Below, piece after piece: positions 1 to 54,509 of a stretch of 64,000 nt of DNA. The position numbers were made by a program, and so were the translations under genes. The notes beneath the pieces were generated by a model that was given only the letters and a program-made list of their open reading frames with translations, was not told the origin of the DNA and did not search any database. The number at the start of each line of letters is the position of its first letter. Positions within the stretch are counted from its first letter, which is position 1. Origin of the DNA: Minisyncoccota bacterium. GTDB lineage: Bacteria; Patescibacteriota; Minisyncoccia; Phycocordibacterales; UBA9973. The stretch is from the NCBI GenBank assembly GCA_041675085.1, contig JBAYUN010000004.1, positions 2,032 to 66,031 of the forward strand, in the 5' to 3' direction.

Positions 1-178
1 ACGCTCTCTAACGAAATGTTAGAATTATCTCGGTTTACGAGATAGGGTTTCCCCATTCGGAAATCTCCGGATCAAAGGTTGCTTTGCACCTCCCCGAAGC
101 TTATCGCAACAACGCTACGTCCTTCATCGCTACTTTTAGTCTAGGCATCCACCGTGTGCCCTTAAATTTCCTGTTAAG
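1..178 (-). rRNA. rrl: 23S rRNA, 5' terminal about 178 nt (gene continues beyond the left edge)
   Basis: The reverse complement matches the conserved 23S 5' domain (..ACACGGTGGATGCC.., GCGATGAAGGACGT, GCGATAAGC, ATTTCCGAATGGGGAAACCC). Confidence 0.85.
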
Positions 179-1427: not shown

Positions 1428-3389
1428 TTATTTATTCAAAATAACACGTGATTGAGGTCCTAGTATACCGTCAGCTTTTAGTCCGTTGTCCGCTTGGAAT
1501 TTCTTTAATGCTACTAGAGTATTGTAGCCAAATTGATTCACCTCTCTGCCCCCTTCTGTGCCAGATACGTTGTAACCTTTTTGATTAAGTTTTTGTTGCA
1601 AACATTTTACTTCATTTGAGTTCTTGCCTTTTAGTAAAGTCCTACTGATTGTACAAATATTTGAATTCTTAGAAATACTAGCTCCCAAGACTTGCCCTCC
1701 TACACATTCTGTACTCATTGAAGTTCTCGGGTAAGAACCAGTATTACCTGCTGCCTTCCAAGAGCTAATAGTTTCGGTCTTGTAGTCTCTAGTACTCGTA
1801 GCACTCGGATACCATTTTTGACAATAAGTTAATGGGTCGATATTGGCACCACTACTACCGTCTGGATCTGTTTGCCAAGTGCCAGATGAATCTGTATGTT
1901 GATTTACTTTACCATACCAAAATGAAATGCGTGGAGTTGTATCGACTGATGGAGTTGTAGGTTCTGCTGGGACCACAGGGTCAGGTGTGACAGGATCTGG
2001 AGTGACTGGGTCGGGAGTAGTCGGAGTTGTCGGTTCTGTTGGAGTGGTAGGTGTAGTTGGAGTCTCTACTGGTGTAGTAGGGGTGACTGGATTTACTGGT
2101 GTAACAGGATTTGTGCCTGGGTCTATGACCGGAGTCTCAGGATTTTCTCCTTTTTTATTGATAGTGAAAAAATCTTTTGAAAAATCTTCAGCTTTTTTAT
2201 CATAAGACTCTGGGCCTAGATGGATTTTAAAATTTTTACCAAATACTATGTCTGGGAAGGAGCCCACAGCTAGAGAAATTTTCTCTTCTCCATCATTCGG
2301 GGTACCCTTCACCAAAATAACAATATATTCTTTTTGATTATTTTTATATATTAAAGATATATTTATTTTTTTATCAGCTGAAGCTTTATTATTTTTCCAA
2401 GTTACTAAAATACTTTCATCTAGATTATAAACTTCTCCACCATTAGGTGAAGTAATTTTAAAGAAGTAAGAATTATTTTCATCTTCATCTATACCAGCTT
2501 GAATACATAAATAAGACAACTTTGTAGAAGTGTGATTATTAAAATTGTATCTCTCATGCCAAGTACTAATAGTCTCTAATTTGTATTCTTTGATGCCAAT
2601 AGTTTTTGGATACCATTTTTTACAATAAGTTAGATAATCTAAATTCGCACCAGAGATACCGTCGGGATCTGTTTCCCATTTACCATTGGTTGTATTAATA
2701 TGTTGATTTACTTTCCCCCACCAAAACATAACTCTAGGTAATAAATCATCACTACCTGGTTTGTCTTCTCCTTTCTTTTCTTCCACGATAGCATCATCTG
2801 ATTTTTTGTCTTCTGTTTTTACCTCTGTGGTTTTTGCCTCTTCTTTGACCTCGGTTTTCACTTCACTTACTACTTCTTTTTGAACTTCTTCTTTAGCTTC
2901 ATCTTTCTTCGATTCTGTTGCATTTTCTGAATTTTCTATTTTTTTATCTTCTTCTTTAATTTCTGTTTTTTCTACATCTTTGACTTCGTTGGACTGAGTC
3001 TCAGAAACAACACTTTCTTCTTTTTGGACTTCTTCTGTACAAGTTAATTTATTGATAGTCTCGCGAGTAAGTGGACCCACGAAGCCAGCAGAGACTAGAT
3101 TGTTGTCTCTTTGAAAAGTCCTAACAGCTCCTAAAGTCTGCTCTCCAAAGTATCCATTTGGTTCTGCTTTTAGATAACCTTTTTCTTTTAAGAAATTCTG
3201 CAACAACAAAACATCTCTTGTATTAGACGCTCTGTCAGAAGCACGATATCTCAAACTCTTATTAATAGAAACACAAACAGCAGAATTCTCTGTGTTTTGA
3301 ATTTGCTCTATTTCAGCATTTTGAGCAAAAGAAAAAATAGGGCTAATTATAAAAGTTAAAACCAATACAAGCTTTATGATTTTTTGCAT
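1428..3389 (-). CDS. Secreted cell-wall-associated protein: signal peptide, N- and C-terminal PG_binding_1 domains, Glu/Lys-rich and Pro/Thr-rich linkers, two copies of the YWWGKVNQH..LTYCKKWYP domain
   Basis: 653-aa ORF with PG-binding motifs (LQNFLKEKGY..FG..T..AV..FQ, and C-terminal VKCLQQKLNQKGY..DGILGP). The repeated modules are PRVMFWWGKVNQH.. and PRISFWYGKVNQH... Confidence 0.8.
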   Translation of the reverse strand: MQKIIKLVLVLTFIISPIFSFAQNAEIEQIQNTENSAVCVSINKSLRYRASDRASNTRDVLLLQNFLKEKGYLKAEPNGYFGEQTLGAVRTFQRDNNLVSAGFVGPLTRETINKLTCTEEVQKEESVVSETQSNEVKDVEKTEIKEEDKKIENSENATESKKDEAKEEVQKEVVSEVKTEVKEEAKTTEVKTEDKKSDDAIVEEKKGEDKPGSDDLLPRVMFWWGKVNQHINTTNGKWETDPDGISGANLDYLTYCKKWYPKTIGIKEYKLETISTWHERYNFNNHTSTKLSYLCIQAGIDEDENNSYFFKITSPNGGEVYNLDESILVTWKNNKASADKKINISLIYKNNQKEYIVILVKGTPNDGEEKISLAVGSFPDIVFGKNFKIHLGPESYDKKAEDFSKDFFTINKKGENPETPVIDPGTNPVTPVNPVTPTTPVETPTTPTTPTEPTTPTTPDPVTPDPVTPDPVVPAEPTTPSVDTTPRISFWYGKVNQHTDSSGTWQTDPDGSSGANIDPLTYCQKWYPSATSTRDYKTETISSWKAAGNTGSYPRTSMSTECVGGQVLGASISKNSNICTISRTLLKGKNSNEVKCLQQKLNQKGYNVSGTEGGREVNQFGYNTLVALKKFQADNGLKADGILGPQSRVILNK

Positions 3390-10520: not shown

Positions 10521-10553
10521 CTGTGGATAACTATCCAAGGGCATCCCTTGGAT
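10521..10553 (+). repeat. REP element copy A (ctgtggataactatccaagggcatcccttggat); overlaps the 3' end / stop region of the RAYT gene
   Basis: Nested palindromes tggata-ac-tatcca and atccaaggg-cat-cccttggat. The element contains TGTGGATAA, the reverse complement of the DnaA-box consensus TTATCCACA. Confidence 0.85.
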
Positions 10554-11193
10554 GATTTAACCATTCGTCTATTTCTTTTAGAAAATCTTGCTTTGAAGTA
10601 AAATATTCTGGAAAAGCTTTTATGTTTAGAATCAACACTTCCCTTCTAGGTACTTCTAAAAAATCTAAATAGCTCGAGTTGCTGTAACTGTACAAATAAT
10701 CTTTAGTTTTAGATAAATCATTTATACCTTGCTCCTTCCAAGTTGGGTCAAAAATCTTTACAGGATTGAGGTGAATATACATAAAAATATATTTTAAATA
10801 TTCATCAGAATCTAAATGCTCGGCTCGGAACCTACCTTCAAACAATTTACCCGTCCTGTCGTACTTCTTGTTGAAATACATAGAATACGCAGTCGATAAT
10901 TTCTCCATAAAAATACTAATACCGTTTTCTTGTTTTTCTTTTAGCAATAAATGAAAATGATTTGGCATCAAACAATAACTGCCAATATCGACAAGAGTTT
11001 CGCCTCGTTCTATCTTGTCCAAGGGCACCCCTTGGATAGTTTTAAAGACAACTGGTTTCGAGCCATTGCATACAAATAAAAGCTTTATAAACCTCTTGTA
11101 GTCAAAATCATCCAAAAATATCAAGGATTTATTGTTTCCCCTATTGTAAACATGATAGTATTCGTTAATTGAAAAATTTATCTTTCTTTCCAT
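10531..11193 (-). CDS. tnpA_REP: REP-associated tyrosine transposase (RAYT, IS200/IS605-type Y1 HUH transposase)
   Basis: HUH motif (YCLMPNHFHLLL), the HVYNRGNN motif and conserved Tyr residues downstream. A degenerate REP lies inside the ORF (11027-11050). Confidence 0.8.
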   Translation of the reverse strand: MERKINFSINEYYHVYNRGNNKSLIFLDDFDYKRFIKLLFVCNGSKPVVFKTIQGVPLDKIERGETLVDIGSYCLMPNHFHLLLKEKQENGISIFMEKLSTAYSMYFNKKYDRTGKLFEGRFRAEHLDSDEYLKYIFMYIHLNPVKIFDPTWKEQGINDLSKTKDYLYSYSNSSYLDFLEVPRREVLILNIKAFPEYFTSKQDFLKEIDEWLNHPRDALG

Positions 11194-31607: not shown

Positions 31608-32546
31608 TCGCGTAATGGTTCAATAGCTTGGCACCACTCAAAGGAATACCATTGAGATATGCCATATACAACAAACAAAAATATGCCAAGAATTAGAAGA
31701 GAAGCTGCGGACTTAGTTCGTAGAGGTTGGAGTGCAAGAAAAGTAGGTAGAAGATTGGGGTTCCACCATACTGCAATCATGGAATGGGTAAGAAAATCTA
31801 AAATTATGGGATATGGGAATATACCAACAAAAAGTTCTCGTCCGTATTCACATCCTAAACAATTAAAGGAAGAAGTAATCATTAAAATCGTAAAGAAAAG
31901 ATTAGAGCATGGAAGGTGTGCTGAAGCTGTACATAAACAACTTCAAAACGATGGACTAAAAGTTTCTTTGTCTTCTGTAAAGAGAACTTTGGAAAGAAAA
32001 TATTTAATCAAGAAACGAAGTCCATGGAAACGATATCATCCACCTGTAGAACGTCCATATCCCCTTAAAAGTGGTGATTTAGTAGAGATTGATACTATTC
32101 ACAGAATGATAGACAAGAAGAAACGTTTGTATGTATTTGTATTGATAGATGTGTATTCTAGATGGATATATGCTAAAGCATATGAAAGAATGGGTGCAAA
32201 GGTTGGAGTGCGTTTTGTCAAAGAAGCACAGAGACATGCACAGTTTAATTTTAATATGTTACAAAGTGATCATGGACCAGAGTTTTCTAATTGGTTCGTA
32301 TCACGTATTGAAAAGAAACATAGATATACAAGAATTGGTAAACCTAATGACAATGCTCATATTGAAAGAGTTAACAGAACTATTCAAGAAGAATGTTTAG
32401 GTAAATTACCTAATGATGTTAAACAAATTAATTGCGAACTTAAAAAATATTTGCAATACTACAATTACAAAAGAGTACATGCAGGAATTAATTATTTAAC
32501 TCCTATGCAAGTGGTGTGAAGCTATTGGTTAGAATACGTACTCGAA
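31608..32546 (+). mobile_element. IS481-family-like insertion sequence (single DDE transposase ORF; candidate imperfect terminal inverted repeats (TIRs) at 31625-31642 and 32510-32527)
   Basis: CAATAGCTTGGCACCACT matches the reverse complement of agtggtgtgaagctattg at 16 of 18 positions; it encloses the transposase gene. Confidence 0.55.
31659..32519 (+). CDS. DDE (rve/integrase-core) transposase, IS481/IS3 superfamily
   Basis: An N-terminal HTH; ..DTIH..LIDVYSRW.. and the QSDHGPEF..KPNDNAHIERVNRTIQEE integrase-core signature. Confidence 0.8.
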   Translation: MPYTTNKNMPRIRREAADLVRRGWSARKVGRRLGFHHTAIMEWVRKSKIMGYGNIPTKSSRPYSHPKQLKEEVIIKIVKKRLEHGRCAEAVHKQLQNDGLKVSLSSVKRTLERKYLIKKRSPWKRYHPPVERPYPLKSGDLVEIDTIHRMIDKKKRLYVFVLIDVYSRWIYAKAYERMGAKVGVRFVKEAQRHAQFNFNMLQSDHGPEFSNWFVSRIEKKHRYTRIGKPNDNAHIERVNRTIQEECLGKLPNDVKQINCELKKYLQYYNYKRVHAGINYLTPMQVV

Positions 32547-41018: not shown

Positions 41019-41117
41019 ATATTTAATTGTTTTATTATGAAATTAAAAAACTTGTCTAATTTAATAGAAACATAATTTTTATAAAATGTCAATAATAAAA
41101 GATTCAGTTAACGATTG

Positions 41118-41191
41118 TCCGTCCTCATGGATTCGAACCATGGACCCCAGAGGTATAAGCTCTGTGCTCTAACCAACTGAGCTAAGGACGG
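41118..41191 (-). tRNA. tRNA with anticodon UAU (reads AUA), i.e. tRNA-Ile(UAU)
   Basis: Manual cloverleaf: acceptor CCGTCCT/AGGACGG, D-arm GCTC-AGTTGGTTA-GAGC, anticodon stem CAGAG/CTCTG with loop CTTATAC, T-arm CATGG-TTCGAAT-CCATG, discriminator A. Confidence 0.65.
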
Positions 41192-41245
41192 ATACACCCC
41201 TTTCGGGGCTTTGGTTACTATATATTTTTAACTTAAAAAACAAAT

Positions 41246-43141
41246 TTAAGCAACTTCTAATTCTTTCTTCTTTGGCATGATACCAAACACAGCGATAACT
41301 TTCTCATATTCTTCTTGCTCTAAAGTCTCTACTTCTATCAATTTATCTGCTATAGCTTTTAGAGCTTTTTGATTTTCTCTCAAAACTTCTTCTGCTTTTG
41401 CTAAAGCTCCGTGAATAATCTTTGAGACTTCGCTATCTATGACAGTTGAGACAGTTTCGGAATAAGGAGAATTATCTTTACCTTCACGTCCTCCAGCATA
41501 CGCCACAGGTCCCAATGCATCTGACATACCCCAGCGTGTAACCATAGCTTCGGCCATAGATTTAGCTCCTTGTAAGTCTGAAGAAGGACCAGTAGTCAAA
41601 TCTCCGAAGATCATTTTCTCAGCGACGTATCCGCCGAGAGACATAGCAATATCGTCTAAGAATTCTTTGCGGGATTGGAGTTTGCGGTCTTCGAGAGGAA
41701 GCTTTAAAGTATAACCTCCTGCAGAACCACGAGCAATAATAGAGACTTTGTGCACAGGGTCAGCATTCGGTAATACAGAAGCGACTAGGGCATGACCTGC
41801 TTCATGATAAGCAGTAATTTCTTTTTCTTTCTTAGAAAGTAAATGACTCTTTCTCTCAGGTCCAAGCATGACTTTTTCTATCGCACGGATAAGGTCGAAT
41901 TGAGAAACTTTTTTCCTATTTTCACGTGCTGCTAGTATCGCGCCTTCGTTCATAACAGAATGCAAATCCGCTCCTGAGAATCCAGGAGTACGTTCGGCAA
42001 TAGTTTTAAAATTAATATCTTCAGCTAAAGGTTTCTTCAATGAGTGAATTTTCAATATTTCTTCGCGGTCATTGCGGTCTGGTAGATCTAGCATAACTTT
42101 ACGATCAAAACGGCCTGGGCGGACTAGAGCTGGGTCCAAGACGTCGGGTCTATTAGTAGCAGCCATAACTATGACTTTATCTGTAGGTTCGAATCCGTCC
42201 ATCTCAACAAGGATTTGGTTCAAAGTTTGCTCACGCTCATCGTTACCTCCTCCGTATCCCCCTCCACGCACGCGACCGATAGCATCTATCTCATCTACGA
42301 AAATAATAGCCGGTGCTGCACGTTTTGCCATCTTGAAAAGATCACGTACACGAGAAGCTCCAACTCCGACGAACATTTCTACGAATTCAGACCCAGAAAG
42401 GTGAAAAAAAGGTACTCCCGCCTCTCCGGCGACTGCACGAGCGAGCATGGTCTTACCTGTACCTGGAGCTCCATTTAGCATAACTCCTTTGGGAATACGA
42501 GCTCCAATATCTAAGAATTTCTTTGGGCTTTTTAGGAAATCTACGATTTCTTTCAATTCTTCTTTCGCTTCTTTGGCTCCAGCTACGTCTTTGAAAGTCA
42601 CTCTGTTGTTCTTGTCATTTGGATCAGTGATGCGGGCTTTGGATTGACCGAAAGTAAAAGCTTGCATACCTTGACCTTTGACCTGACGAGATAGGTACCA
42701 GAAGAAAAATACAATAAATAGTATCGGCAATAAGAAAGGTAAAATATTGAGAAGTACGACTAAAGCTCCGCTAGGATTTTTAATCGCTATTTCTACAATA
42801 GATAGAGACTCTTTGTCTACGCCATAGTTATATAAAGTTTGAGACAAACTGGACTCAACTTCTTTTTTAGATTCTTTGGTAGTCTCGTCGTTATAAACTA
42901 TTTGAAGCTTCTCGCCTTCTACTGTTATCTTCTTTACCTCACCTAGAGAGACATCACTCGCAAGTTGTGAGATCGGTATCTCGACTACTGGAGTACCTGA
43001 TTTATCAAGTATCAAATACAATGCTGTCAGAAGCATAAATATTAAAATAGTAGTGACGATACTACCTGAGAGACTGCTCCCCTCTTTTTTGTCTTTGTTG
43101 TTATTATTGTCGTCTTTTTTATTTAAAAATTTAAAATCCAT
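41246..43141 (-). CDS. ftsH: ATP-dependent zinc metalloprotease FtsH
   Basis: GAPGTGKT Walker A, second region of homology (SRH), and the HEAGHA zinc site. Confidence 0.95.
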
Positions 43142-43345
43142 AGACTATATAATAACATAAAATTTGAGAAAATTAAAGGATAAAAAACCGACTTTTAAAT
43201 GTTGGGTTTTGGGTAGAGTTTTGTGATACTCCGCTCGTTTGTACTCGCGGAGTCCTACAAAAATATAATTCTTTTTTGGTTTTGTGGCGCCGTATGATTA
43301 CATACGGCATCCTACAAAAATATAGTCGCTATGCTCCTTATTTTT

Positions 43346-43746
43346 GTGGAGATGACGGGAATTGAACCCGTGTGCAAAAGATGACTATATTAAAATCTAC
43401 ATGTGTAGCTTGTTTATATTTTTAAATTAAAAAATTCTTAAAGAAGCAAAATATTTTTTAATCGAGCTTGAATTTTCATAAATACGTTCAGCACGTGTAT
43501 CTCTTATCCCGATAATATTTTGCCAGTTTTCATATATCGGAAGTCTATGAAACTGACACCAACCTGCGCGCTTAGGCGAAAGCTGGAGCGAAAGCAAAGT
43601 CCTTCATACCGAAGTATGGAGAAACTCCTGCCTTAACCTTAGAAGCTAATTTTGCAATTAGACATTTGAACTTTGATTTACGAGAAAACTTCCCTACTCG
43701 ACATGCATTAATATAGCGAGACCTCTTGTCTATGCCTTGCATCCCC
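43346..43746 (-). ncRNA. ssrA: tmRNA (SsrA), tag reading frame ..GMKDFAFAPAFA*
   Basis: 5' GGGGATGCAAGG.. pairs with the 3' ..CATCTCCAC acceptor; the T-arm is GGGTTCAATTCCCG; the in-frame tag ends AFA then TAA; it lies next to smpB. Confidence 0.75.
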
Positions 43747-43835
43747 CTAAAACACTTGCTAAGCAAGTGTTCGGGCGATCCGCCAAGGGCGGATTTAGCC
43801 ATAAAACCTGTTTAGCACAGTGCGTGACAAATATT

Positions 43836-44096
43836 TTATTTCAAATTGTCAAAATACTTCTGGCGCAATTTTTTCTTAAACCGCGCAGACCATAAGCTCT
43901 TTAAATATCTTTCTCTTTGAAAAGCTTCTGTTTTGTCAGAAATCTCTTCATGGTATAAAAGTTCTAATGGTCTACGTACTTTTGTTGCTTCCACAAAACC
44001 AGAATTATGTCTATGTAATCTGTTTTTTATATCTTGAGTACAGCCAACATATAATTTTCCATCTTTTTTACTTATAAGGATATAAACATAATACAT
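43836..44096 (-). CDS. GIY-YIG nuclease-domain protein
   Basis: YYVYIL..DGKLYVGCTQDIKNRLHRHN. Confidence 0.7.
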   Translation of the reverse strand: MYYVYILISKKDGKLYVGCTQDIKNRLHRHNSGFVEATKVRRPLELLYHEEISDKTEAFQRERYLKSLWSARFKKKLRQKYFDNLK

Positions 44097-44104
44097 AAAA
44101 TTAT

Positions 44105-44548
44105 TTATCTCTTGTATTCTCGACGCAACTCTCTATCTGTCTCGCGTTTCTTGGTAGTCTCGCGTTTGTCGTGTTGCTTTTTACCCTTTACTAGGGCTAT
44201 CTCTATCTTGATTTTACGTCCTTTATTATACAGTGAAATAGGTATTATTGTCAAACTCTTATTCTTCTCACTTTCAGCGAGTTCGGCTATCTCTTTTTTA
44301 GTTAAAAGGATTTTACGATTGCGTAAGGGATTATAATCCTTGGGAGCGTTTTTAGGCTGATAAGGGTCGATATTTGCATTGATCAAGAAAACTTCACCTC
44401 CACGCACGATAACAAAGGCCCCTTCTAAAGACATACGTCCGCCTCGTACGGATTTCACTTCATTGCCCTCGAGCTCTATTCCGCCTTCGTATTTCTCAAG
44501 GACTTCATAGTTAAAGTGAGCTTTTCTATTTTGGATATATGCGACCAT
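44105..44548 (-). CDS. smpB: SsrA-binding protein SmpB
   Basis: NRKAHFNYEV..EGIELEGNEVKS signature. Confidence 0.9.
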   Translation of the reverse strand: MVAYIQNRKAHFNYEVLEKYEGGIELEGNEVKSVRGGRMSLEGAFVIVRGGEVFLINANIDPYQPKNAPKDYNPLRNRKILLTKKEIAELAESEKNKSLTIIPISLYNKGRKIKIEIALVKGKKQHDKRETTKKRETDRELRREYKR

Positions 44549-48993: not shown

Positions 48994-50358
48994 TTAACAA
49001 ACAAGCGTAATAACATCCCCTTGATCTGGAGCGTAAGCTTCTAGTCCTAGATTGTCTCTCAACTTTTGAACTAAGAATAAAGCGGATTTTGGCTCACCCA
49101 TGACTACGAAAACTTTCTTTAAAGTCTCAGATGTGTCTTCTACGAAGTTTATAAGATTATCACTGTCTTTGTGTCCTGAATATCCTGAGATAGTAGTGAT
49201 GTGGGCACGGACTTCGACGTATTCACCCGAGATACGTACAGTCTTCACCCCTTCTTGAATCATACGTCCTGGAGTGCCAGCAGATTGATATCCAGTGAGC
49301 AAGAGAGTGTTATTAGGATCAGGCAAGAAATGACGCTCATGATGCACTACACGTCCTCCAGAGGACATACCCGAGCCCGCAATGATGACTTTTGGATTTG
49401 GGAAATGATTGATAGTTTTTGATTCTTCAGATTTGAGAGTGGTGTGAAGTCCAGGGAAATCAAATATGTATTTATCGTGCACCATGACGGCTTTAGCTTC
49501 GTCATTAAAATAATCTTTGTATTTTTTGAAAACTTCAGTGAGCTTAATAGCTAGCGGTGAATCAAAGAAAATAGGCATGACAGGGATTCTTTTATTTTCT
49601 ACTAGTTCGTTCAACTCAAATAGTAATTCTTGGGAACGTTCGAGAGAGAAAGTCGGGATTATCAAAGTCCCCTTTCGGTTATAATTATCTTCTATAGCTT
49701 TCTCCAAGAACTTCCTACGGTCATCACGTGATTCGTGATTTCTGTCTCCATAGACTGATTCCATAATCATATAATCAATATCAGTGACTTTATCTGTATC
49801 GGGTAATATTGGGGAGGGACTGTTGCCAAGGTCTCCTGTGAACAATATCTTTTTGCCATTGTAGACAAATTTAAACATAGATGAGCCTAGGATATGACCT
49901 GCATTTAGCATGGTGACTTCAAGATCAGGTGTGATTTGTATTTTTTCATAATATTTAAAACCAGTCCAAAGATTCATAGCTGTCTTGATATTCTCTGGAG
50001 TATAGATAACATCTAAACCAAATTCAGTATTTTTAGAAAGTATCATTGCCGTATCTTCCATCATAGGCAAAGCGAGCGCCTTGGTCGGTTCGGTAGAATA
50101 GATAGCTCCCTTGAAACCTTCAGAGATTAATTTCGGAATACGTCCAACGTGATCGATATGAGCATGAGTTACAAATAAAATATCTATTTCTTTTGGATCA
50201 TAGGGAAATTTATCCCAGTTCAAATCATCAGCGAGTTTTACACCTTGAGTCAAACCACAATCTATTAATATTTTCTTTCCATCAACTTCAAAAAGAAAAT
50301 TTGCACCAGTTACGGTACCTGTTCCCCCTGCGAATGTTATCTTGGCTACTTTTTGCAT
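48994..50358 (-). CDS. MBL-fold beta-CASP family ribonuclease (RNase J / CPSF-like)
   Basis: HAHIDHVG (HxHxDH); 454 aa. Confidence 0.7.
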   Translation of the reverse strand: MQKVAKITFAGGTGTVTGANFLFEVDGKKILIDCGLTQGVKLADDLNWDKFPYDPKEIDILFVTHAHIDHVGRIPKLISEGFKGAIYSTEPTKALALPMMEDTAMILSKNTEFGLDVIYTPENIKTAMNLWTGFKYYEKIQITPDLEVTMLNAGHILGSSMFKFVYNGKKILFTGDLGNSPSPILPDTDKVTDIDYMIMESVYGDRNHESRDDRRKFLEKAIEDNYNRKGTLIIPTFSLERSQELLFELNELVENKRIPVMPIFFDSPLAIKLTEVFKKYKDYFNDEAKAVMVHDKYIFDFPGLHTTLKSEESKTINHFPNPKVIIAGSGMSSGGRVVHHERHFLPDPNNTLLLTGYQSAGTPGRMIQEGVKTVRISGEYVEVRAHITTISGYSGHKDSDNLINFVEDTSETLKKVFVVMGEPKSALFLVQKLRDNLGLEAYAPDQGDVITLVC

Positions 50359-51639: not shown

Positions 51640-54399
51640 TTATTGCATTCCACTATAACGAGCCATGATCTCAGACTCTACTTCTTCGCGGTCGCGTCCG
51701 TATTTTAGATATGAAAGTTGTTTCAAACTATCTACTATCTTCATACTACCCTCTTCTGGAGCGAGAGTTTGGATATTGAAAGGTTTGGTCGGTTGACCAC
51801 GGACTAGCATCGATACATACGCATTGTAGTTATCTATCTTAGTAATATCTCTTGCTGTGAAAACTGGTTTGAATTTTGCTTCCAAGAAATTCGCATCCTC
51901 AGGTGAAACACGAAACACAGCCATAGAACCTACGTTACCAAAAACCGCATTCTTGATACCTTCGTCAAGTTGAGAGATGTATTGGTGAGCAACATTTAAG
52001 GACAATCTATATTTACGAGCTTCAGACAAAATAGAAGAAATAGAATCTGTGGTCACGTTTTGGAACTCGTCTATGTATAGATAAAAATCATTCATTTGTT
52101 TTCCAAACATATCGACGCGAGATAGAGCCGCCATCTGAATTTTACCAACAAGCACAAGACCGATAAGGTTCGCGTTAATATCACCCAGACGTCCTTTGGA
52201 TAAATTCACTAAAAGAATCTTTTTCTCGTCCATGATTTTCCTAAAGTTAAATACAGATTCTTGTTGCAAGACTACAGGACGCATAATATCGTTACTGATA
52301 AAGTTGTCGAACTTGGATGAGATATAAGGTACAAAGTTAGCGAGAGATTGATCTCCACTCGTCTCTTCGGCAGATTTCCAGAATTGTTTAATGATAGGGT
52401 TCTTGCATTTCGCCAATTTCATATCACGGAAATTCTTGTCGGCTAGGACGCGAGTAATCTCGAGCATAGTCGAACCAGACTCAGGATCTTCCATCACAAG
52501 AAAAGCACTATTTCTAAAGTATTGCTCAAACATAGCTCCTCCTCCGACTTTCATGTCGAAAAGTTTATTGAAAATACCCATGAGTTCATTGACCACGAAA
52601 GTCTTTTGTTCCGGATAACGTGGATCGAATTCCAACATATTTAGACCCATAGGTCTCTCAGTATAAGCAGGATCGAAGTATATCACATCATCCATACGTT
52701 CACGTGGAATACGAGAAAGTATAGTCTGAATATCTGTACCGTGAGGATCGATATAACAAACTCCATCTCCATTCCTAATATCCTGAGTTATCATATTTAA
52801 CAAGATATTCGTCTTACCTGTTCCTGTCTGACCGATGACGTAAAAGTGACGCATTCTATCTTCGCGAGTCATACGAATAGGAGTCTCACGACCTCGATAA
52901 CTATTCATACCGAGAATAATGCCTTCAGAACCCATATCCATAGGTGCCGGAGCAATACCAGACTTTGCTTCTTTGAGTTGAGACATATTGCCGATACCTA
53001 CAGGGAAATGAAAAATAGAAGCTAGTTCTTTTAGATTTAAAGGCAGAACTTTGTCATGAGAAAAGATACGGAAAGAGAAATCGTGAAAAAGTTTCTTCAA
53101 ACTACTACCGTTCATGCGTTCGAAAACTATAGAGTTACTTGCAACTTCAGTAAATTGGTTGAAAGAGGATTCTATTTCAGTTAGAATAGCGTCGGCTCTT
53201 TCTTTAGTCTCAGCGGAAGTTATAATTCTGATGTTAGCTTTCATGATAGAGCTTTTCAATTTATTATTGATTTTCTCAGGTGCGCCTTCGTCTACTGCTC
53301 TCCTACCCTTCATGAATTTTGGGTCATCCTTTTTTTTAGTAGGACCAAAAAATAAATCTTTAGAAGCATTCAAAAAAGCAACGTGGAATTTATAAAATTT
53401 ATCTGATGCATTTTTAACAGAAGTCCCACTCTTTACATCATCTAAAATTTTGTGAAAATCTACGATAAATTGGTTGCCAGCGGGAGCTATCAAGAGTTGA
53501 ATAGAGGCACCTTCACCTTCGGTTTTGAGTTTAGAAAATACTCCCAAGATATTCTTCATCGGATCATGATCGATATTTTCATAGGTACGTATAGGTAATA
53601 CTGGTTTTTCTGACAAATAAGCATAAGCACCCGAAGAATGACCTTCATTATTAAAAATATTAAAATCGTCTTTTACTTCTTTGACTTTAGCATCATGATA
53701 AAAAGCCAAGATTTGTTTCTCAAAAAGATTTAGATGTTTATTTGGAACACTTGCATATATCACTACTTGATCCGTCTGACTATCTAAAGCTACCTCAAGA
53801 GTAAAATATTCTTCTTTGGGATTATTTTTATCGAGCGAAATAGAAGCCATACCAGCATAAAACTGCTCCATAGCTCCGATAAATTCTTTGAAACTTTTGA
53901 CCTTATCGGCTTCATCCTCTGGAGGAGGTAGAGTAATTTCAAAAAGAGTCATTTTTAAAGCTCGGTCTAAATACCCACCTTCAGTGAGGTCTTTCACTAT
54001 TTCACCTGTTTTTAAATATTGGATTAAAAGCCTGTGAAAATCATCATCGATATGAGGATTGTTCATCGCTTCTACGATAGATAGAGTATTGCGTATACCT
54101 TTTGTTAAAACGAGTCCCAAGAGCTCTTCCATAACAGTATCGTGAAGCTCGGGTTTTAATTTGAGCACAATGCCGTCTTGTTCTTTTTGAGTTAGATTGT
54201 GATTTGTGGCGAGGACTTCTTCTTTTGGCGCTTCTTTATAATCGAGAATAGTTTCAGTCACAACCGCATTTTCTGCACTTTCAAAATGACCCAAGCTTAC
54301 TAGCTCTTGTTCTTTTTTTGCAATATGCGCCCGTAAATAAGAAAGTTCTTCTTCAGGGTTTTTAAATTTCGGCATTTCATTTAGAAATGATTTTTCCAT
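51640..54399 (-). CDS. Large soluble P-loop ATPase of the FtsK/HerA/TraD(VirD4) superfamily (type IV coupling-protein-like, no TM anchor); the ORF extends to 54438
   Basis: Walker A GQTGTGKT, DPHG, Walker B FYLYIDEFQ and the coupling-protein-like RKYRLSLNVAHQYISQL. Confidence 0.6.
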   Translation of the reverse strand: MEKSFLNEMPKFKNPEEELSYLRAHIAKKEQELVSLGHFESAENAVVTETILDYKEAPKEEVLATNHNLTQKEQDGIVLKLKPELHDTVMEELLGLVLTKGIRNTLSIVEAMNNPHIDDDFHRLLIQYLKTGEIVKDLTEGGYLDRALKMTLFEITLPPPEDEADKVKSFKEFIGAMEQFYAGMASISLDKNNPKEEYFTLEVALDSQTDQVVIYASVPNKHLNLFEKQILAFYHDAKVKEVKDDFNIFNNEGHSSGAYAYLSEKPVLPIRTYENIDHDPMKNILGVFSKLKTEGEGASIQLLIAPAGNQFIVDFHKILDDVKSGTSVKNASDKFYKFHVAFLNASKDLFFGPTKKKDDPKFMKGRRAVDEGAPEKINNKLKSSIMKANIRIITSAETKERADAILTEIESSFNQFTEVASNSIVFERMNGSSLKKLFHDFSFRIFSHDKVLPLNLKELASIFHFPVGIGNMSQLKEAKSGIAPAPMDMGSEGIILGMNSYRGRETPIRMTREDRMRHFYVIGQTGTGKTNILLNMITQDIRNGDGVCYIDPHGTDIQTILSRIPRERMDDVIYFDPAYTERPMGLNMLEFDPRYPEQKTFVVNELMGIFNKLFDMKVGGGAMFEQYFRNSAFLVMEDPESGSTMLEITRVLADKNFRDMKLAKCKNPIIKQFWKSAEETSGDQSLANFVPYISSKFDNFISNDIMRPVVLQQESVFNFRKIMDEKKILLVNLSKGRLGDINANLIGLVLVGKIQMAALSRVDMFGKQMNDFYLYIDEFQNVTTDSISSILSEARKYRLSLNVAHQYISQLDEGIKNAVFGNVGSMAVFRVSPEDANFLEAKFKPVFTARDITKIDNYNAYVSMLVRGQPTKPFNIQTLAPEEGSMKIVDSLKQLSYLKYGRDREEVESEIMARYSGMQ

Positions 54400-54430
54400 T
54401 TCTAAATTATAGCAAGAAAAAAACATATTA

Positions 54431-54509
54431 AAAAGCAAAATGTTAAAATTTTCATGGTCTGGTTGAGCAAAGCGACCCGAGGACCTGAAAATTTTAATAT
54501 TTTGCTTTT
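54431..54509. promoter_or_regulatory. Imperfect 28-bp inverted repeat with a 22-nt loop, about 35-110 nt upstream of the probable start of the ATPase gene
   Basis: aaaagcaaaatgttaaaattttcatggtc .. gacctgaaaattttaatattttgctttt. Confidence 0.4.

Follow-up and report, generated by a model that had tools for sequence, protein, structure and literature searches.

A putative AUA-reading tRNA-Ile(UAU), encoded beside ftsH and shared by many Patescibacteria

The 64-kb window studied here, by which we mean the whole stretch of DNA that was analysed, carries the gene for a tRNA-Ile with a genomically encoded UAU anticodon. We estimate at about 0.75 the probability that this tRNA is functional and vertically inherited, that it is charged with isoleucine and reads AUA directly, and that TilS and the CAU precursor tRNA have been lost in the lineage to which the window belongs. 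In textbooks, lysidine (TilS) is described as nearly universal in bacteria, and AUA is a codon that tRNA-Ile(GAU) cannot read. According to the explanation we propose, a minor tRNA-Ile would pair directly with the frequent AUA codons by means of its UAU anticodon, and it would represent an old, vertically inherited tRNA family that became fixed beside ftsH in many Patescibacteria.

When ARAGORN was run on the window, it called one tRNA and no other, tRNA-Ile(tat), on the minus strand at 41117-41191, and the Rfam family RF00005 matched end to end (model positions 1-71) at 41118-41191(-) with 68.9 bits (E=6e-13, gathering score 29). From 5' to 3' on the minus strand the molecule is CCGUCCU UA GCUC AGUUGGUUA GAGC A CAGAG CUUAUAC CUCUG GGGUC CAUGG UUCGAAU CCAUG AGGACGG A, with the loop CUUAUAC at 41159-41153 and the anticodon UAU at 41157-41155 (Table 1). 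The stems comprise 7+4+5+5 = 21 pairs, every one of them Watson-Crick, and the conserved nucleotides U8, A14, G18G19, U33, A37, the T-loop UUCGAAU and the discriminator A73 are all present. A sequence-only reading of this DNA had described a canonical cloverleaf and a loop C-U-U-A-U-A-C with the anticodon UAU, U33 and A37, and had suggested that ARAGORN be used as a check: the loop is exactly what the minus strand encodes, ARAGORN returned the same anticodon, and the cloverleaf is borne out by that program, by the RF00005 score and by 21 standard pairs out of 21, to which we can add the strand, absent from the earlier account. The single-sequence MFE fold of the window tRNA does not place the D and anticodon arms in a cloverleaf, as is common for tRNAs, and we set it aside because it is outweighed by the covariance-model alignment and by the comparative data given below. 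Position 34 is a T in the gene (41157, minus strand), not the encoded C34 of a canonical tRNA-Ile2(CAU), and because the encoded base is U34, lysidine is neither possible on this tRNA nor needed. The acceptor stem is closed by C1:G72 (41191 / 41118) in place of the usual G1:C72.

Table 1. Coordinates of the tRNA-Ile(UAU) gene and its neighbours in the window
Feature	Coordinates	Strand	Basis or content
tRNA-Ile(UAU) gene, 74 nt, CCA not encoded	41118-41191	-	ARAGORN, Rfam RF00005, sequence, covariation
Anticodon loop C32-U33-U34-A35-U36-A37-C38	41153-41159	-	Sequence; ARAGORN anticodon at gene position 35
Spacer from the ftsH stop to the tRNA, 54 nt	41192-41245	-	Sequence
ftsH, 631 aa, upstream neighbour of the tRNA	41246-43141	-	NCBIfam TIGR01241, 765 bits
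Region upstream of ftsH (position of tilS in TilS-bearing relatives)	43142-44548	-	Holds tmRNA and smpB; PP-loop ORF absent
tmRNA	43346-43746	-	ARAGORN; Rfam, 131 bits; between smpB and ftsH
smpB	44105-44548	-	Housekeeping gene

Relatives of the gene came from two sources. GTDB species representatives were scanned with a deliberately narrow pattern (D-arm, CTTATA, T-arm), which returned at least 120 loci/species, and an FtsH-anchored scan of JGI metagenomes yielded 28 further UAU tRNAs; from the GTDB matches listed and the JGI metagenomes, 145 distinct tRNA(UAU) sequences were parsed to cloverleaf positions. All 21 standard pairs are retained in 131 of these 145 sequences, and at most positions of the acceptor stem, the anticodon stem and the T stem there are 4-7 pair types, which amounts to abundant compensatory change. 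Both A73 and U12:A23, present in the window tRNA as well, occur in 144 of the 145. Judging from the intact pairs, the compensatory changes and these near-invariant positions, the window tRNA belongs to a family under purifying selection and is not a pseudogene. The C1:G72 pair is common to 29 of the 145, a subgroup of Nomura-/Taylor-/Kaiser-/Paceibacteria type that includes the window. Among the matches listed, the closest tRNAs (L014, L031, L081, L090) are identical at 72 of 74 positions, and what separates them from the window tRNA is one compensatory T-stem pair; the tRNAs and the FtsH proteins (76-78% identity) that come nearest to those of the window are from MAGs with the titles Candidatus Nomurabacteria, Candidatus Paceibacterota or 'Patescibacteria group'. 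The window's organism is accordingly a Paceibacteria-type, Nomurabacteria-like member of the CPR.

These comparisons also bear on a more trivial explanation, namely that the gene is a decayed copy of tRNA-Ile2(CAU) or of tRNA-Met in which a chance C-to-T change has produced a pseudogene or a mis-called anticodon. A single transition does separate CAT from TAT, and the MFE fold of the single sequence is not a cloverleaf. However, the score of 68.9 bits falls within the 48.5-76.9 bits of the other tRNAs scanned in related loci, all 21 pairs are intact, and the TAT anticodon recurs in all 145 distinct homologues, which keep their cloverleaf through compensatory substitutions. The sequence-only reading had itself named a pseudogene as a possible outcome, and having checked for one we find this explanation contradicted by the data and grant it next to no probability.

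Besides ftsH, smpB and the tmRNA gene, the window holds ribosomal-protein genes, recA, ftsK and many genes for large proteins with peptidoglycan-binding domains. In the GTDB set, ftsH and the UAU tRNA share one (arbitrary) 8-kb block in 33 of the 120 loci listed, often together with smpB, and a UAU tRNA is found near ftsH in 16 of 18 metagenomic loci whose FtsH is at least 60% identical and which provide at least 1.5 kb of downstream sequence. The linkage of ftsH and tRNA(UAU) is conserved among relatives, and several CPR loci have the order ftsH-tRNA-Ile(UAU)-tRNA-Val(GAC). An AT-rich stretch that resembles a promoter lies in the spacer between ftsH and the tRNA, as does a small hairpin, GCCCC-GAAA-GGGGU (41209-41196), which ends 4 nt before the tRNA. 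Transcription of the tRNA may start at a promoter of its own or continue from ftsH; a scan for consensus promoters and terminators around the tRNA gene returned nothing significant, that is, nothing better than in shuffled sequence. Four related loci (L014, L081, L090, L037) have a common motif, CTTTGC-N(13-15)-TTTTGTAGTATTAAA, about 20-60 nt upstream of tRNA-Ile(UAU), which looks like a dedicated promoter predicted for the tRNA in these loci and from which the window spacer differs.

Other features of this neighbourhood were recorded. The tmRNA of the window has a predicted tag that is unusually long, at 27 residues (AKLASKVKAGVSPYFGMKDFAFAPAFA), and between smpB and ftsH the source gene calls place a GIY-YIG ORF (86 aa) and a 76-aa ORF, the latter apparently overlapping the tmRNA gene. 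A DUF8128 / TrwB-like ATPase of 932 aa is encoded at 51640-54438 (-) in the window, and nine other CPR loci (L005, L022, L039, L052, L072, L105, L107, L114, L119) encode homologues of it, 32-45% identical, within the 8-kb block that also carries the UAU tRNA. In L072, 40 nt separate the end of the homologue from the tRNA(UAU) that follows.

Synteny of this kind is relevant to the suggestion that the tRNA is an auxiliary one, contributed by a phage or mobile element, which the genome would have gained recently as an aid to AUA decoding and which would stand outside the core translation apparatus. A 5-kb contig classed as viral in IMG/VR (L003, IMGVR_UViG_3300020047_008110) does carry a tRNA(UAU) with exactly the anticodon arm of the window tRNA, CAGAGCUUAUACCUCUG, and this could be the tRNA of a CPR phage or a misclassified CPR fragment. 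In two other loci (L134 and L056) a second copy of the tRNA 3' half lies within about 30-60 nt downstream of tRNA-Ile(UAU), resembling an integration site and read by us as the predicted signature of a mobile element integrated in the tRNA gene. The window, too, has mobile genes in an otherwise streamlined region, an IS200-type Y1 transposase at 10531-11193 (-) and an rve-family integrase at 31659-32519 (+); a duplicated tRNA half, which would mark an att site, was searched for in the window and none was found. Against a recent acquisition, the position after ftsH is constant among relatives at 60-78% FtsH identity, the tRNA sequence tracks FtsH divergence, and the neighbours (smpB, ssrA, ftsH) are housekeeping genes. 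We therefore consider a mobile origin very improbable, and vertical inheritance beside ftsH remains our preferred reading.

The need for such a tRNA is apparent from codon usage. ATA accounts for 521 of the 17,991 codons in 61 ORFs of the window, or 29 per 1000 and 36% of the isoleucine codons, and among housekeeping genes it amounts to 40 per 1000 codons in recA, 65 in infC and 55 in rpsH. The G+C content of the window is 30-38%. An AT-rich genome heavy in AUA was what the sequence-only reading had anticipated, and the codon count agrees with it; use of AUA at this frequency, housekeeping genes included, means that an efficient decoder is needed. The meaning of the codon was addressed by aligning FtsH with 104 homologues. 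At its ATA positions the homologues have isoleucine in 64.6% of cases, valine in 13%, leucine in 11% and methionine in 1.7%, a profile that is the same as for ATT and ATC, and at its ATG positions methionine is found in 40%. Since the ATA positions align with isoleucine and not with methionine, AUA is, on the indirect evidence of this alignment, an isoleucine codon in the window's organism and not a methionine codon.

Clues to the origin of the tRNA were obtained from an unexpected Rfam match. The family RF04354 ('Plastid-ycf2 5'UTR') matches the antisense (plus) strand of the window tRNA with 38.7 bits; its printed consensus contains UUAUGAG, and its reverse complement is what we take to be plastid trnI-CAU. 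In a comparison that comprised 25 tRNAs in five loci, RF04354 matched only four, three of them UAU tRNAs (55.5, 48.2 and 34.0 bits) and the fourth a CAU tRNA directly adjoining tilS in L183 (33.9 bits), and no initiator, elongator Met, Val, Leu, Phe, Gly or Cys tRNA was matched. Because the matches are limited to UAU tRNAs and a tilS-adjacent CAU tRNA, the UAU tRNAs can be said, from this profile comparison, to resemble tRNA-Ile2(CAU) in body, and this resemblance makes an origin by a C34-to-U34 change most likely, the same route as has been proposed for M. mobile (PMC3575796). An ancestral tRNA-Ile2(CAU) would thus have become a UAU tRNA, after which TilS and the CAU precursor tRNA would have been dispensable and could have been lost in the window's lineage.

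As for charging, A73 and U12:A23 give the window tRNA a body of isoleucine type. Nureki et al. reportedly identified in 1994 C4:G69, C29:G41 and A38 as determinants for the IleRS of E. coli. The window tRNA has U4:A69, G29:C41 and C38 at these places, determinants that are defined for E. coli and may not apply to this phylum; among the 145 tRNA(UAU) sequences, C4:G69 is present in 105, C29:G41 in 22 and A38 in 59. We infer that the IleRS of the window's organism accepts the UAU anticodon. A search of 209 loci revealed no IleRS of the window's clade, the synthetases encountered being ValRS, LeuRS and one IleRS in a MAG labelled 'archaeon' (L033). In that MAG (contig JBAZUY010000001.1, 863-3851, minus strand) a tRNA(UAU) lies 20 nt upstream of, and on the same strand as, the gene for the isoleucyl-tRNA synthetase (TIGR00392, 791 bits), and the two look like one operon.

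If the window tRNA reads AUA without lysidine, tilS would be expected to be absent from the genome, and none was seen in the sequence available. No ORF in the six frames of the window has the TilS PP-loop motif SGGxDS, the gene calls for the 10 kb by which L124 extends the sequence beyond the 23S gene record no PP-loop domain, and no TilS-like gene is present in the approximately 84 kb read of the 529,268-bp source contig, the ENA metagenome contig ERZ27247358:k141_557398. Likewise, no credible PP-loop ORF was found in the 120 GTDB blocks listed or in the 28 UAU-bearing metagenome loci, about 150 UAU loci in all; three matches to the motif in the GTDB blocks are short ORFs (23-120 aa) that were judged spurious by eye. 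ARAGORN detected no CAU tRNA in the window, where the UAU tRNA is the only one, or in the adjacent 10 kb of L124, and it called no tRNA of any kind in L124.

In five more distant FtsH loci tilS lies directly upstream of ftsH (Pfam ATP_bind_3, with TilS_C in three). The UAU tRNA is missing from all five, and CAU tRNAs are found close by in two; three of the five, at 58-68% G+C, probably do not belong to the CPR. In L162, which is CPR, the TilS is 51-64% identical to TilS proteins that NCBI names as Candidatus Moranbacteria, and both this locus and the complete Moranbacteria genome CP064994.1 have the order tilS-ftsH-membrane protein-tRNA-Val(GAC) without a UAU tRNA. The ftsH locus therefore exists in two complementary states, with tilS or with tRNA-Ile(UAU), as is seen when the Moranbacteria order tilS-ftsH-tRNA-Val is set against the ftsH-tRNA-Ile(UAU)-tRNA-Val of other CPR. 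Over 80 FtsH-anchored loci, 28 have the UAU tRNA, five have TilS and none has both, a distribution that is not significant on its own (Fisher p about 0.11-0.16). A search for TilS homologues gave 6480 matches, and within the best 120 the matches named by organism were Moranbacteria in eight of nine cases and Zixibacteria in the other; these 120, which cannot establish absence from any given genome, contained no organism-named match from Nomura-, Kaiser-, Taylor- or Paceibacteria-type taxa and none from the window's source contig.

The alternative that these data bring into focus is a redundant decoder, in which tRNA-Ile(UAU) is functional and tilS and tRNA-Ile2(CAU) are retained elsewhere in the genome, so that AUA has two readers. 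Taniguchi et al. (PMC3575796) proposed that evolution passed through such a stage with two AUA decoders, and they report that LAU and UAU decoders occur together in some bacteria. It is also true that about 84% of the source contig lies outside the sequence read, that TilS is present in at least one CPR lineage, the Moranbacteria, and that a MAG labelled Moraniibacteriota (L042) carries a UAU tRNA. On the other hand, the lack of a PP-loop ORF in any of the approximately 150 UAU-bearing loci, the complementary states of the ftsH locus, and the taxa named among the best 120 of 6480 TilS matches all argue against redundancy, as do three UAU clusters (L006, L022, L072) in which the only two CAU tRNAs are, by eye, one initiator-like and one elongator-like. 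Two coexisting readers of AUA are in our opinion unlikely, although clearly less so than a mobile origin. Because adjacency of tilS and ftsH is not universal, an empty slot upstream of ftsH is no proof of loss, and with only about 84 kb of the 529-kb contig covered, genome-wide loss of tilS, which the sequence-only reading had described as the usual companion of such an anticodon, is likely but unproven. We hold it probable, from this part of the contig, that the window's genome lacks tilS, and tRNA-Ile2(CAU) would likewise be missing genome-wide.

Direct reading of AUA by a UAU tRNA following the loss of TilS, which is the reading we favor, has precedents that differ from the present case in instructive ways. 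The reduced, AT-rich genome of Mycoplasma mobile (PMC3575796), like that of the window's organism, encodes a UAU anticodon for AUA; tilS is missing from it and unseen here, and for both tRNAs the proposed ancestor is a tRNA-Ile(CAT) gene in which C changed to T. The U34 of M. mobile tRNA-Ile2(UAU) is unmodified, its IleRS has Arg865 in place of a conserved Trp, the residue that is Trp905 in E. coli, and its own ribosome bars AUG (PMC3575796). Those features, the unmodified U34, the adapted IleRS and the co-adapted ribosome, were established by experiment in M. mobile. That species belongs to the Mollicutes, and the tRNA described here comes from an unrelated lineage, the Patescibacteria, shows C1:G72 and C38, and has become fixed in a very large clade instead of a few species. 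In Bifidobacterium and Neorickettsia, which are without tilS, tRNA-Ile(UAU) also replaces tRNA-Ile2(CAU), with an IleRS that is of the eukaryote type (PMC3575796). A tilS deletion in B. subtilis survives on tRNA1-Ile(G34U), whose U34 is unmodified and which binds AUA far better than AUG, with a Met-to-Ile error of about 10^-3 (PMC3919564). This suppressor shows that a bacterial tRNA-Ile with U34 can substitute for TilS, but it arose in the laboratory as a mutant of the major tRNA-Ile(GAU), while the window tRNA is natural and ancient and looks Ile2-like, not Ile1-like. In Nanoarchaeum equitans and Korarchaeum, ultrasmall reduced organisms as well, a tRNA-Ile(UAU) likewise stands in for a modified-C system (PMC8450103, PMC3919564); these are archaea, and the system replaced is TiaS/agmatidine. 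Compared with the canonical pairing of tRNA-Ile2(CAU) and TilS, the task (AUA as isoleucine) is the same and the body similar, and the tilS of Moranbacteria sits in the same ftsH neighbourhood; the difference is at position 34, with an encoded U instead of C.

By analogy with these systems, the window tRNA most likely reads AUA directly with U34. The examples of M. mobile and of the B. subtilis tilS-deletion suppressor also lead us to infer that AUG would not be misread by it. Rejection of AUG might be due to weak pairing of an unmodified U with G, to the context of the anticodon loop (C32/C38 in the subgroup), or to the ribosome, and U34 of the window tRNA may carry a modification.

In terms of distribution, at least 71 of the 120 species listed by the narrow GTDB scan have CPR names, and the CPR labels among the matches listed include Nomura-, Taylor-, Kaiser-, Uhr-, Magasanik-, Falkow-, Kuenen-, Dojka-, Woese-, Collier-, Peri- and Saccharibacteria. 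Labels of MAGs are those of their submitters, and the 13 titles 'Gammaproteobacteria'/'Pseudomonadales' are doubtful, at least two of these loci (L005, L022) having CPR-like neighbours. UAU tRNAs with the same general body were also seen in MAGs labelled Chloroflexota/Chloroflexia/Limnocylindrales (L004, L055, L073, L083, L092, L108, L115, L121), Dormibacterota (L027, L086), Ignavibacteria (L015, L117), Planctomycetota (L046), Bacteroidota (Pedobacter, Flavihumibacter; L102, L116) and Bacilli (L089), which implies that bacterial tRNA-Ile(UAU) extends well past the published list. We consider it slightly more probable than its opposite that most Patescibacteria, except for lineages such as Moranbacteria, have abandoned the supposedly essential TilS/lysidine system and read AUA with a vertically inherited tRNA-Ile(UAU) anchored at ftsH.

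Published accounts give a different impression. One survey puts TilS in 98.18% of bacteria and describes it as 'evolutionarily stable' (PMC6063277), and tRNA-Ile(UAU) has been reported from 19 bacterial species (PMC4013482) or from 17 bacterial genomes that belong to Bifidobacterium, Mycoplasma and Neorickettsia (PMC8450103); tRNAs of the window type are the 'tRNA-Ile3' of tRNAscan-SE 2.0 (PMC8450103), and 'rare cases' is still the wording of a preprint from 2026 (bioRxiv 10.64898/2026.02.03.703510). The sequence-only reading had also called an encoded UAU anticodon rare, which holds for this literature, with its 17-19 bacterial genomes, but is wrong for Patescibacteria, given the CPR names on at least 71 of the 120 species listed, where the tRNA is widespread and syntenic. 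Bacterial tRNA-Ile(UAU) is thus already known; our literature search found no relevant paper on lysidine, tilS or UAU in CPR/Patescibacteria, and a clade-wide distribution in Patescibacteria was not found described in the literature searched.

A few further observations on the window are reported here for completeness. The 5' end of a 23S rRNA gene lies at its edge (1-175, minus strand; L124 10694-14979). What precedes this gene is a mechanosensitive-channel-like gene, where a 16S gene and spacer tRNAs might have stood, and the tRNA-Ile(GAU)/tRNA-Ala spacer is absent here; for this reason the rRNA genes appear to be unlinked. A protein of 653 aa (1428-3389, minus strand) has two peptidoglycan-binding domains and a match to Pfam APP_N (E = 8e-14), the amyloid precursor N-terminal heparin-binding domain, which is odd for a bacterium. 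A metallo-beta-lactamase / beta-CASP ribonuclease is encoded at 48994-50358 (-), and its best NCBIfam match is the type VII CRISPR Cas14 model (397 bits, cut-off 800), followed by archaeal aCPSF1; from these matches it is probably a housekeeping RNase.

Taken at the level of the phylum, our results indicate that a whole bacterial radiation routinely uses the UAU solution, with AUA common even in housekeeping genes. For annotation, this means that a tRNA with a TAT anticodon in a CPR genome should not be flagged as suspect. If a loss of lysidine on the scale of the phylum is true, this would be the largest known bacterial clade without lysidine and a natural test of how the ribosome and IleRS discriminate AUA from AUG with U34, and it might hold an undescribed modification of U34 or an anticodon-loop solution such as C32/C38. 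Should the genome-wide absence of tilS be confirmed, the picture of how AUA/AUG discrimination evolved would have to be revised, TilS would no longer be a universal bacterial marker, or a drug target for this phylum, and cultivable Saccharibacteria would provide a system in which the modification of U34 and the misreading of codons can be measured.
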